From the NCBI RefSeq assembly GCF_003019035.1, contig NZ_CP027447.1: a DNA stretch of 64,000 nucleotides. The stretch is one strand, 5' to 3'. Below the pieces are notes generated by a model. That model searched no databases and was not told the DNA's origin. It saw nothing but the letters and a program-made list of their open reading frames with translations. Made by a program: the position numbers and the translations under genes. Below are positions 20,749-22,602 of the stretch, piece after piece (position 1 is the stretch's first letter; each line of letters opens with the position of its first letter). The DNA comes from Escherichia coli. Its GTDB lineage: Bacteria; Pseudomonadota; Gammaproteobacteria; Enterobacterales; Enterobacteriaceae.

Positions 20749-22602
20749 TTACCTTTCCAGTCGCCTTGCTCCGCGCTCAGAGAGACGTTCGCGTACTGCT
20801 GACCGTTGCTCGTTATTCAGCCTGACAGTATGGTTACTGTCGTTTAGACGTTGTGGGCGGCTCTCCTGAACTTTCTCCCGAAAAACCTGACGTTGTTCAG
20901 GTGATGCCGATTGTATACGCTGGCGGGCGTTATCACGTTGCTGTTGGTTCAGTGGGCGCTGCTGTACTTTTTCCTTAAACACCTGGCGCTGTTCGGGAGT
21001 TGCAGACTGAATGCGCTGGCGCGCTGCCTCTCTTCGCTGCTGGTTCTGCGGGTTAGTCTGCATTTTCTCGCGAACCGCCTGGCGCTGCTCAGGCGAGGCG
21101 GACTGAATACGCTCACGCGCTGCCTCTCTTCGCTGCTGGATCTGCGGGTTAGTCTGCATTTTCTCGCGGACTGCCTGGCGCTGCTCAGGAGAGGCCGACT
21201 GATAACGCTGACGAGCGGCGTCCTTTTGTTGCTGGGTCAGTGGTTGGCGACGGCTGAAGTCGCGGAAGTCGTCATAGCTCCCATAGTTTTCAGCTTCATT
21301 AAACCGCTGTGCCGCAGCCTGACGCTGGGTATCTCGCGTAGTGACTGGTGCTGCGTGTGTTCGTTGCTGAAACTGGCTTGCTGCCGCCTGACGCTGACTG
21401 TCGCGCGATAGAGCAGGTAACTGCGTGGCGCTCATGCCGCCGTTGACATCGGTTTGGTGAAACCGCTTTGCCATATCCTGATCATGATAGGGCACACCAT
21501 CACGGTAGTTTGGATTGTGCCGCCATGCCATATTCTTATCAGTAAGATGCTCACCAGTGATACGGTTGAAATTGTTGACGTCGATATTGATGTTGTCGCC
21601 GTTGTGTTGCCAGTCATTACCGTCACGATGACCGCCATCGTGGTGGTGATAATCATCATCGTCATGATGATGATGGTCATGATCGTCATCGTCCCAGTCG
21701 ATGCTGCTGAATAGTGCGTATGTGGTAGCAACGCCCATGCTATAGCCGAATCCGCGCACAAAGCTGTCAACAAACGGTTCTCCGGCTGGCGGCGGCAGAT
21801 AAACTGGCGGATACGCAGTATTGGCCCAGTTCCCGTAAACCACGGTTGGGTTGTAGTTGGGAATATAGACCACATCAGGATTGGTGGGCTCAATGGAAAT
21901 GACGGTTGTTGCAGGCTCTGTAATGACAGGGTTGGCAGTTGAAACGGTATTGGATGGTATGACGGGAGCCGTGACTGTCTGTGTTACCGGTACAGCTTTC
22001 TTCGTTGTGGTAATAACTTTCTGTTCGGTTGATGACTTCAGCGAACCGGTTTGTTGCGCCAGTTGCCGCAATCGCTGTACCGAGTCCATCACGTCCTGCG
22101 GCTGCGCCAGAAAAGCATCGCCCAGGTTTTGCACCCATTGCGGGTTTTCGCCCATCAACGCCATCAACTGTGGAAAGGCCACCAGTGATTTGACGCTGGC
22201 GTCCCACGGCTGGTCAGATACCGCCTGAATAGCAGCATCGCCTTGTTTAAGTGGATTATCGTGCGACCATTGCACTGCTTGAGCAACGTTTGCCGGATAG
22301 GTTGATGCCATTAACACTTGTGAAAGCAGAGAGTCGGGGTATAGCGCGACAGGTGCAACCCATTGATCTATTTGAGCAGTGCTGAATGCGGATTTGACGA
22401 CGGCAGGTGTTACAGGAGGCACGGAAACCGTTGCAGGAAGCGTAACCGCGGCAGCGTCAGACACAGCCAGTTGTGTCGATTGCGCTTCCACAGGCGCTTC
22501 CACTGTGCGGCTTTTTATATATAGCCCGGCAGAGGCGGCACAAAGCCCGGCACTGCAAATTAGCGCCAGCACATGGGGTTTAAACGGCAAAGTCATTTTC
22601 AT
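20749..22602 (-). CDS. yacH: Uncharacterised secreted repeat protein YacH
   Basis: 617-aa ORF with N-terminal signal peptide, a His/Asp-rich tract (DDDDHDHHHHDDDDYHHHDGGH) and C-terminal ~32-aa tandem repeats (QSASPEQRQAVREKMQTNPQ...). Confidence 0.9.
   Translation of the reverse strand: MKMTLPFKPHVLALICSAGLCAASAGLYIKSRTVEAPVEAQSTQLAVSDAAAVTLPATVSVPPVTPAVVKSAFSTAQIDQWVAPVALYPDSLLSQVLMASTYPANVAQAVQWSHDNPLKQGDAAIQAVSDQPWDASVKSLVAFPQLMALMGENPQWVQNLGDAFLAQPQDVMDSVQRLRQLAQQTGSLKSSTEQKVITTTKKAVPVTQTVTAPVIPSNTVSTANPVITEPATTVISIEPTNPDVVYIPNYNPTVVYGNWANTAYPPVYLPPPAGEPFVDSFVRGFGYSMGVATTYALFSSIDWDDDDHDHHHHDDDDYHHHDGGHRDGNDWQHNGDNINIDVNNFNRITGEHLTDKNMAWRHNPNYRDGVPYHDQDMAKRFHQTDVNGGMSATQLPALSRDSQRQAAASQFQQRTHAAPVTTRDTQRQAAAQRFNEAENYGSYDDFRDFSRRQPLTQQQKDAARQRYQSASPEQRQAVREKMQTNPQIQQRREAARERIQSASPEQRQAVREKMQTNPQNQQRREAARQRIQSATPEQRQVFKEKVQQRPLNQQQRDNARQRIQSASPEQRQVFREKVQESRPQRLNDSNHTVRLNNEQRSAVRERLSERGARRLER
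20900..21290. repeat. Tandem ~96-bp direct repeats inside yacH coding sequence
   Basis: Units beginning ctgaat[g/a]cgct... at 21007 and 21103 with further diverged copies either side; encode the 32-aa protein repeats. Confidence 0.8.

Follow-up and report, generated by a model that had tools for sequence, protein, structure and literature searches.

Length variation of an in-frame 96-bp repeat array in yacH, a DUF3300 gene of Escherichia coli

In rhizobia, genes for DUF3300 proteins are universally co-located with a DUF2950 gene, and both genes are induced in symbiosis (PMC4653623). The Escherichia coli member of the family, yacH, is classed as a 'y-ome' gene (PMC12133099). It is regulated by CpxR and repressed by protamine, and its deletion mutant is more protamine-resistant; earlier work cited in the same study reported repression by cecropin A (PMC9600279). 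In addition, yacH is among the ampicillin-induced promoters (PMC8865558) and among the genes with expression changed by the cathelicidin-derived peptide B22 in UTI89 (PMC6737244), and its expression is strongly reduced when rob is deleted (PMC7537768). Here we describe yacH in a window of 64,000 nucleotides of E. coli DNA (contig NZ_CP027447.1), where it is the minus-strand open reading frame (ORF) 20749..22602, with an ATG start and 617 amino acids (aa) plus stop. The ORF is 100% identical to the RefSeq coding sequence (CDS) 'yacH: DUF3300 domain-containing protein' of E. coli FDAARGOS_497, and the gene name given by a first-pass annotation of this DNA is therefore correct. The gene is already annotated and is an ordinary case of an in-frame coding repeat. 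Of 5,426 complete E. coli genomes, 5,425 carry it, in each case with lpdA on one side and acnB on the other, and in 5,369 of the 5,426 at least 80% of it is kept in one piece.

We favor, with a probability of about 0.55, the reading that YacH is a functional exported DUF3300 envelope protein whose repeat-built basic tail and His/Asp loop tune surface charge interactions. The conserved core, composed of a helical domain, Pro-rich strands, a Gly-rich segment and an Asn-rich W-H-N-P motif, carries the activity of the family. The basic tail of the Escherichia proteins is made of 32-residue units, each consisting of two 16-17-residue copies and having a helix-turn-helix hairpin as its predicted fold. 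The array differs in length by whole 96-bp units, and the three-, four- and five-unit alleles are in frame, under purifying selection and inherited by lineage. The support for this account of evolution and structure is good; the role of the protein we infer.

Architecture of YacH within the DUF3300 family

The sole Pfam match of YacH is DUF3300 (PF11737; E=2.1e-78, 263 bits), which covers residues 75-333 and positions 2-227 of the 227-position model. A scan against NCBIfam gave nothing meaningful for the protein and nothing for its C-terminal tail. A first, word-indexed homologue search was saturated by E. coli variants and was of use just for length variants. An exhaustive search of 1.84 billion representatives yielded 9,511 DUF3300 relatives at E<=0.001 (representatives of 50% identity clusters); for the reading of the family, 60 sequences were read and 94 aligned. 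The aligned relatives have one architecture in common: a predicted signal peptide and the helical domain come first, then Pro-rich strands, the Gly-rich segment and the Asn-rich W-H-N-P motif, and last a basic, repeat-prone tail. YacH has the same architecture and matches the family model over its full length; it differs from most relatives by its His/Asp insertion and by 32-aa repeats in expanded form. Most relatives end in a Gly/Arg-rich C-terminus (...GGGGRR), which E. coli YacH lacks.

The segments of YacH are listed below with the evidence that defines them, where pLDDT is the predicted local distance difference test score, dN/dS the ratio of nonsynonymous to synonymous substitution rates, and TRF Tandem Repeats Finder.

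22528..22602, minus strand: predicted signal peptide or N-terminal anchor, aa 1-25 (MKMTLPFKPHVLALICSAGLCAASA, followed by G); hydropathy maximum 2.04 at aa 11-29
22381..22527, minus strand: A/V/P/S/T-rich variable linker, aa 26-74; composition, pLDDT ~50, the gene's highest dN/dS (0.2-0.7)
22039..22380, minus strand: all-helical conserved DUF3300 domain, aa 75-188; eight helices at pLDDT 95-98, dN/dS 0.00-0.04 where computable
21904..22038, minus strand: T/P/V-rich linker, aa 189-233; two deeply diverged E. coli allele classes in the alignment
21694..21903, minus strand: conserved strand/Pro-rich part (ISIEPTNPDVVYIPNYNPTVVYG...YPPVYLPPP) and Gly-rich hydrophobic part (GFGYSMGVATTYALF), aa 234-303; consensus, pLDDT 73-95
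21628..21693, minus strand: His/Asp tract DDDDHDHHHHDDDDYHHHDGGH, aa 304-325; disordered in both models, TRF 9-bp period at 21653-21689
21412..21594, minus strand: Asn-rich segment and W-x-H-N-P-x-x-R-x-G-V-P-Y motif (NINIDVNNFNRI...WRHNPNYRDGVPYHD), aa 337-397; consensus, pLDDT 79-94, dN/dS 0.02-0.16
21253..21411, minus strand: start of the basic C-terminal tail, aa 398-450; two RD(S/T)QRQAAA..F motifs, helices at aa 397-415 and 423-439
20818..21252, minus strand: tandem repeat array, a half-unit (aa 451-467) and four 32-aa units (aa 468-595); TRF and motif anchoring
20752..20817, minus strand: conserved C-terminal end NNEQRSAVRERLSERGARRLER, aa 596-617; kept in E. coli alleles

The N-terminus has K2 and K8, a 19-residue hydrophobic stretch (aa 11-29) and then an ASA/G site, and AlphaFold2 models aa 9-23 as a helix. 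Relatives have a similar hydrophobic stretch at their N-termini, with lipobox-like Cys sites in some. By these features the N-terminus resembles a Sec signal peptide, which makes export plausible and cleavage presumable. The AlphaFold2 model of the whole protein, built on an alignment of 94 relatives, has a mean pLDDT of 73.8. The helical domain exceeds 95 (aa 75-185), and most near-invariant columns of the family consensus lie in aa 75-188. A T/P-rich linker follows, then confident strands around IEPTNPDVVYIPNYNPTVVYG, a short strand hairpin formed by the Gly-rich segment, the disordered His/Asp loop, and the confident Asn-rich/WRHNP segment, in which W360 and H362 are nearly invariant across the family. 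A separate model of aa 68-392 reaches a predicted template modelling score (pTM) of 0.77. At the other end of the protein, the C-terminal end is recognisable in Klebsiella and Kluyvera orthologues, e.g. as SSEQRSAAREHLSEHRELRRR.

The DUF3300 core resembles no solved structure. A Foldseek search against the PDB gave no match better than E=1.9, and sequence and profile searches of the PDB were empty apart from a prion-protein (PrP) match. This match involved PrP ~98-181 and YacH aa 259-380 (profile positions 166-247), and it aligned the Gly-rich stretch, DWE with DWG, and NMNRYPN with NVNRYNN. Its E-value was 0.0035 with a 30-sequence profile and dropped to 0.7 with the deeper, 94-sequence profile; the likeness is therefore most likely compositional, and we reject it.

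Selection was estimated as dN/dS by the Nei-Gojobori method against six alleles, from K-12, three other E. coli, E. albertii and a divergent E. coli clade. The overall dN/dS of yacH is 0.07-0.14. By segment, the helical domain has values of <=0.04 where computable, out to E. albertii; dS is saturated in the comparison with the divergent clade. The repeats are at 0.07-0.19 and the His/Asp segment at 0-0.16. All segments are under purifying selection, and the gene is therefore maintained, repeats and tract included. Separately, dS in the aa 189-233 linker (21904-22038) is ~0.89 between two E. coli allele classes, and yacH is 95.5% identical to K-12 at the nucleotide level, against 97.5% for its neighbor acnB and 99.4% for lpdA. 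This divergence suggests that old yacH alleles have been retained, or swapped by recombination.

The repeat array and its length among strains

The first-pass annotation had placed tandem repeats of ~96 bp, or 32 aa, in at least four copies at 20900-21290. The array is the right object, with a range shifted by ~80 bp. TRF reports a 96-bp period at 20866-21213 with 3.6 copies (78% matches, score 276), and also with 2.4 copies (87% matches, score 359). Anchoring on the protein motif QSA[ST]PEQRQ defines four units at a spacing of exactly 32 aa:

21106-21201, minus strand: repeat unit, aa 468-499
21010-21105, minus strand: repeat unit, aa 500-531
20914-21009, minus strand: repeat unit, aa 532-563
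20818-20913, minus strand: repeat unit, aa 564-595

The half-unit (aa 451-467, 21202-21252) precedes them, and the degenerate conserved tail follows. Units 1 and 2 are identical at 88 of 96 nucleotides and 30 of 32 residues; units 3 and 4 are more diverged, older copies. The score of the C-terminal tail against itself lies 71 standard deviations above that of shuffled tails, so that its periodicity is far from chance. In the AlphaFold2 model, eight helices span aa 457-580 at pLDDT 75-88, two per repeat unit, as helix-turn-helix hairpins.

Tandem repeats are not confined to E. coli. Significant repeats of unrelated sequence and period occur in 40 of 92 family tails (43%), e.g. four copies of DRDAARQKAQNV or of GDARERAREVASNRAAGS. 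Repeat-prone basic tails are therefore a family trait, and the E. coli unit is one lineage's version of it. A scan of species-representative genomes gave 13 loci with yacH orthologues, and in the genera other than Escherichia (Kluyvera, Klebsiella, Enterobacter, Raoultella) a 16-17-aa unit such as LQNPTAQQQQRRENAKSH is present two or three times. In Escherichia, SPEQRQAVREKMQT and NPQNQQRREAARQRIQSA together make up the 32-aa unit, which is a doublet of this enterobacterial unit and was expanded later.

The (S/T)PEQRQAVREKMQ sequence of the repeat, with the LTQQQ that precedes it, presumably resembles the LTXXQ motif of CpxP and Spy, a lead to which searches lent no support. If the likeness held, the repeats would be LTXXQ hairpins of the Spy/CpxP/ZraP type, and YacH would act as a periplasmic chaperone under Cpx control, with several hairpins for binding clients. 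Cpx regulation of yacH (PMC9600279), the predicted envelope location, the helical hairpins and an (L/S)(T/S)PEQ(R/K)Q-like motif are common to YacH and these proteins. However, the Pfam scan of the whole protein gave DUF3300 alone even at E<=10, NCBIfam had nothing for the tail, and phmmer against PDB sequences found no CpxP, Spy or ZraP at E<=10. YacH also differs by its large unrelated N-terminal core and its much more basic hairpins. With no profile, sequence or fold match, membership of the LTXXQ family is largely refuted, and we give the chaperone explanation hardly any credence. Tetratricopeptide repeat (TPR)-like repeats were rejected as well, with no TPR-type Pfam match and with 32-aa units dominated by R, Q and E and containing few large hydrophobic residues.

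The array differs in length from strain to strain, as the first-pass annotation had proposed. In a sample of 60 rows, spaced evenly through the ranked list of 5,425 complete E. coli genomes, 34 (~57%) have four units and 25 (~42%) have three. Among the three-unit rows, 14 are of the type of allele L003, six of the L005 type and five of the L007 type (ABU 83972 among them), with the deletion type assigned by matching alignment patterns. Alignment of 11 alleles reveals that three different 32-aa units are deleted, one in L003 and L004, another in L005 and the third in L007 and L008. These deletions represent at least three independent events in different lineages. Five-unit alleles are rare, and the protein database holds one of 648 aa (P0005). 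With three-, four- and five-unit alleles and different units lost in different lineages, the comparison of copy number across strains gave variation; the first-pass annotation had taken an invariant array as counting against its proposal.

Other in-frame duplications occur in the tail, of 45 aa (APVITRD...QQQKDA; P0007 and P0009, 662 aa), 17 aa (FKEKVQQRPLNQQQRDN; P0053, 634 aa) and 4 aa (IQQR; P0066, 621 aa). The 45-aa duplication of P0007 falls in the start of the tail, aa 398-450. Given this assortment, the whole tail tolerates length change. A deletion of another kind is found in E. coli NCTC10444 (L006:401-2128), which lacks 40 aa in frame inside the conserved helical domain, equivalent to aa 121-160. 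Although annotated as intact, this protein is probably non-functional, judging from the position of the deletion.

Every E. coli length variant examined is a multiple of three, and allele types recur among related strains, e.g. ST95 and ABU 83972. Therefore, the variants are lineage-stable alleles and not a fast switch. The 96-bp unit, the in-frame variants and the recurrence of allele types in related strains speak against a phase-variable contingency locus, in which repeat changes would turn a reading frame or promoter on and off at high frequency. The array is comparable to the loci used for variable-number tandem repeat (VNTR) typing of E. coli and Shigella, such as the 96-bp ms11, being likewise a 96-bp intragenic repeat with a copy number that tracks lineages. 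It is not ms11 itself, since both ms11 primers (PMC8215070) are absent from the window even at 3 mismatches. We found no description of the yacH repeat polymorphism in the literature searched.

The His/Asp tract and the metal question

The acidic, histidine-rich block that the first-pass annotation had located near 21640-21700 was found at 21628-21693 (aa 304-325); of its 22 residues, 9 are His and 10 are Asp. The tract is present in 5 of the 94 sampled relatives, all of them enterobacterial; in the others, a 4-residue loop such as WGHN takes its place. Every enterobacterial orthologue in the species-representative scan has a tract, of 9-25 aa. The tract is an enterobacterial insertion at the site of this 4-residue surface loop. 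Since it is absent from 89 of 94 relatives, it cannot be the core function of the family.

Like the array, the tract varies in length. Aligned alleles differ by -13 aa (L002), -2 aa (L006), +2 aa (L005) and +8 aa (L008). In the 60-row sample, the tract region is standard in 50 rows, longer by 6 nt in six and by 24 nt in one, and shorter by 39 nt in two, so that nine of the 60 genomes (~15%) carry in-frame length variants. The GAT/CAT-rich DNA of the tract is prone to indels. In S. Typhimurium 14028s, UK-1, SL1344 and D23580, yacH is a pseudogene through an 8-bp deletion in the same GAT/CAT-rich DNA (PMC3391293, PMC10048834). This deletion, fixed in S. Typhimurium lineages, is the sole known yacH frameshift (PMC3391293).

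Metal handling could be the main job of YacH, with the protein acting as a periplasmic buffer, store or metallochaperone for Zn, Ni or Cu and the rest of the molecule serving as a scaffold. The His and Asp content of the tract, its retention with varying sequence in all enterobacterial orthologues examined, and its dN/dS of 0-0.16, which indicates purifying selection, all fit this explanation. The loop is also comparable to the His-rich loops of the ZnuA type, which are likewise disordered and His/Asp-rich and belong to an exported protein, as YacH is predicted to be. However, YacH and ZnuA have no fold or domain in common, and the weak compositional alignments between the tract and the ZnuA loop, at E=6-7, are non-significant. 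Moreover, the tract is missing from most of the family, its length varies freely among E. coli strains (-13 to +8 aa), and we found no metal-linked regulation or phenotype of yacH in the literature. We therefore consider metal handling as the main job distinctly unlikely. Metal binding by the tract is plausible from its composition, at best as a clade-specific add-on.

Proposed role, partner gene and flanking regions

How the two variable parts might act can be outlined as follows. Unequal recombination between the 96-bp DNA repeats, or slippage from one to another during replication, would change the number of units, and replication slippage would change the length of the His/Asp tract. The basic helical tail may be an extended polyanion-binding module or spacer in the envelope, with lipopolysaccharide (LPS) or phospholipid head groups, or other anionic polymers, as candidate partners. 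Its net charge is +19, against a family median of +14. The acidic His-rich loop may bind divalent cations or cationic peptides, or pair electrostatically with the tail. Jointly, tail and loop would tune the surface charge interactions behind the published protamine phenotype.

In the main alternative, YacH would span the membrane and have its tail in the cytoplasm. In such a bitopic inner-membrane protein, the signal peptide would be cleaved, the helical domain would be periplasmic, the Gly-zipper would span the membrane, and the tract and tail would be cytoplasmic, the tail binding nucleic acids, ribosomes or the inner leaflet. Basic regions flank membrane spans on the cytoplasmic side (the positive-inside rule), with which a strongly basic tail after a span agrees. 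Across the family, the Gly-rich segment has a median of 1.56 for its best 19-residue hydropathy; 43 of 94 relatives reach at least 1.6, and the segment has a GxxxGxG pattern. The internal Gly-rich hydrophobic segment of YacH may associate with the membrane, and YacH is named as a membrane protein in older annotations and in some papers (PMC10048834, PMC7537768). However, the E. coli segment scores 0.78 only, and the acidic run directly after it would be unusual as a cytoplasmic flank. AlphaFold2 gives a short strand hairpin instead of a helix and places the next conserved segment in the same compact unit (the aa 68-392 model), and no Pfam glycine-zipper family matches. Taken together, we regard this topology as unlikely for YacH.

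Several points nevertheless weigh against the favored reading of an exported protein tuning surface charge. The Gly-rich segment is hydrophobic enough for a transmembrane helix in those 43 relatives, and if it spans the membrane, the basic tail is cytoplasmic. The polyanion- and cation-binding roles derive from composition alone and may not hold. The confidence of AlphaFold2 for repeated helices is possibly inflated, and the isolated tail is perhaps disordered. In addition, the pseudogene is common in S. Typhimurium strains (PMC3391293, PMC10048834), and the function of YacH is therefore dispensable in at least one close relative.

A further point concerns the gene pair of DUF3300 and DUF2950. 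A DUF2950 gene lies directly downstream of the DUF3300 gene of relatives in loci L012, L014 and L016, and tblastn with three DUF2950 queries finds it downstream in all 11 non-Escherichia loci (L019-L029). In L016, which comes from a metagenome and is probably enterobacterial, the yacH orthologue has 55% identity to the YacH of the window and likewise adjoins acnB; the DUF2950 gene of this locus is at 6690-7484. In contrast, the same three proteins find no DUF2950 gene in the 64-kb window or in loci L001, L009 and L018 (E. albertii), K-12 and the divergent E. coli clade included, and blastn against all complete E. coli genomes gives no DUF2950 match at the DNA level. L017 ends ~80 bp downstream of yacH and is uninformative on this point. 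Locus L011 is also without the gene, which makes DUF2950 a common associate of DUF3300 and no strict requirement. From these comparisons, Escherichia appears to have lost the usual partner, and without it E. coli YacH may work unlike the rest of the family.

Loss of the partner bears on two further explanations. First, yacH might be decaying in Escherichia, with its indels being neutral noise on the way to a pseudogene. The DUF2950 gene, present in L016 and the 11 non-Escherichia loci, is missing from the Escherichia loci with an examinable downstream flank; many S. Typhimurium strains carry yacH as a pseudogene (PMC3391293), the 40-aa deletion in the helical domain occurs in one E. coli strain (L006), and we found no severe phenotype of a deletion mutant in the literature. 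Against decay stand the low dN/dS, overall and in the helical domain out to E. albertii, the 5,369 of 5,426 genomes that hold at least 80% of yacH in one piece, and the fact that all length variants examined are in frame. This explanation is disfavoured, and we give it a very slim chance. Second, DUF3300 and DUF2950 might form a widespread envelope system with a fold that no solved structure has shown so far, in which Escherichia would have replaced the lost partner by an electrostatic switch, a metal- or pH-responsive acidic His loop with an expandable basic tail, so that repeat number would tune the attraction of cationic antimicrobial peptides. We consider this explanation highly improbable.

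Two features flank the gene:

20708..20736, strand not assigned: A-tract/GC-stem/T-tract hairpin; RNA fold -15.9 kcal/mol, z = -2.0
22603..22956, strand not assigned: divergent yacH-acnB intergenic (promoter) region; annotated gap of 354 bp

The hairpin is symmetric (A6-GCGGC-loop-GCCGC-T6) and lies inside the 70 bp that separate yacH from the convergent lpdA. It is likely, from its sequence, to be a bidirectional intrinsic terminator for both genes; a consensus terminator scan did not report it. In the promoter region, a sigma-70 consensus scan of the yacH strand gave nothing convincing. The CpxR-box consensus with 2 mismatches occurs 57 times in the window against 51 expected, a chance level, and the single nearby site is weak. 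A site bound by RpoF holoenzyme in systematic evolution of ligands by exponential enrichment (SELEX) has been placed in the yacH-acnB intergenic region (PMC5493296). The annotated start of acnB is at 22957; the mechanically called ORF begins 153 nt further upstream, at 22804, within the divergent promoter region, and the extension 22804-22956 is probably untranslated.

In this study, we examined yacH as one member of a very large family. Its repeats and His/Asp tract decorate the conserved DUF3300 core in a lineage-specific way, and both are under purifying selection and differ in length among strains. For the family, a partner-bearing orthologue from Klebsiella, Kluyvera or Enterobacter is probably a better model than that of E. 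coli K-12. In E. coli, the natural three-, four- and five-unit alleles, together with the tract variants, are ready material for probing the protamine phenotype.

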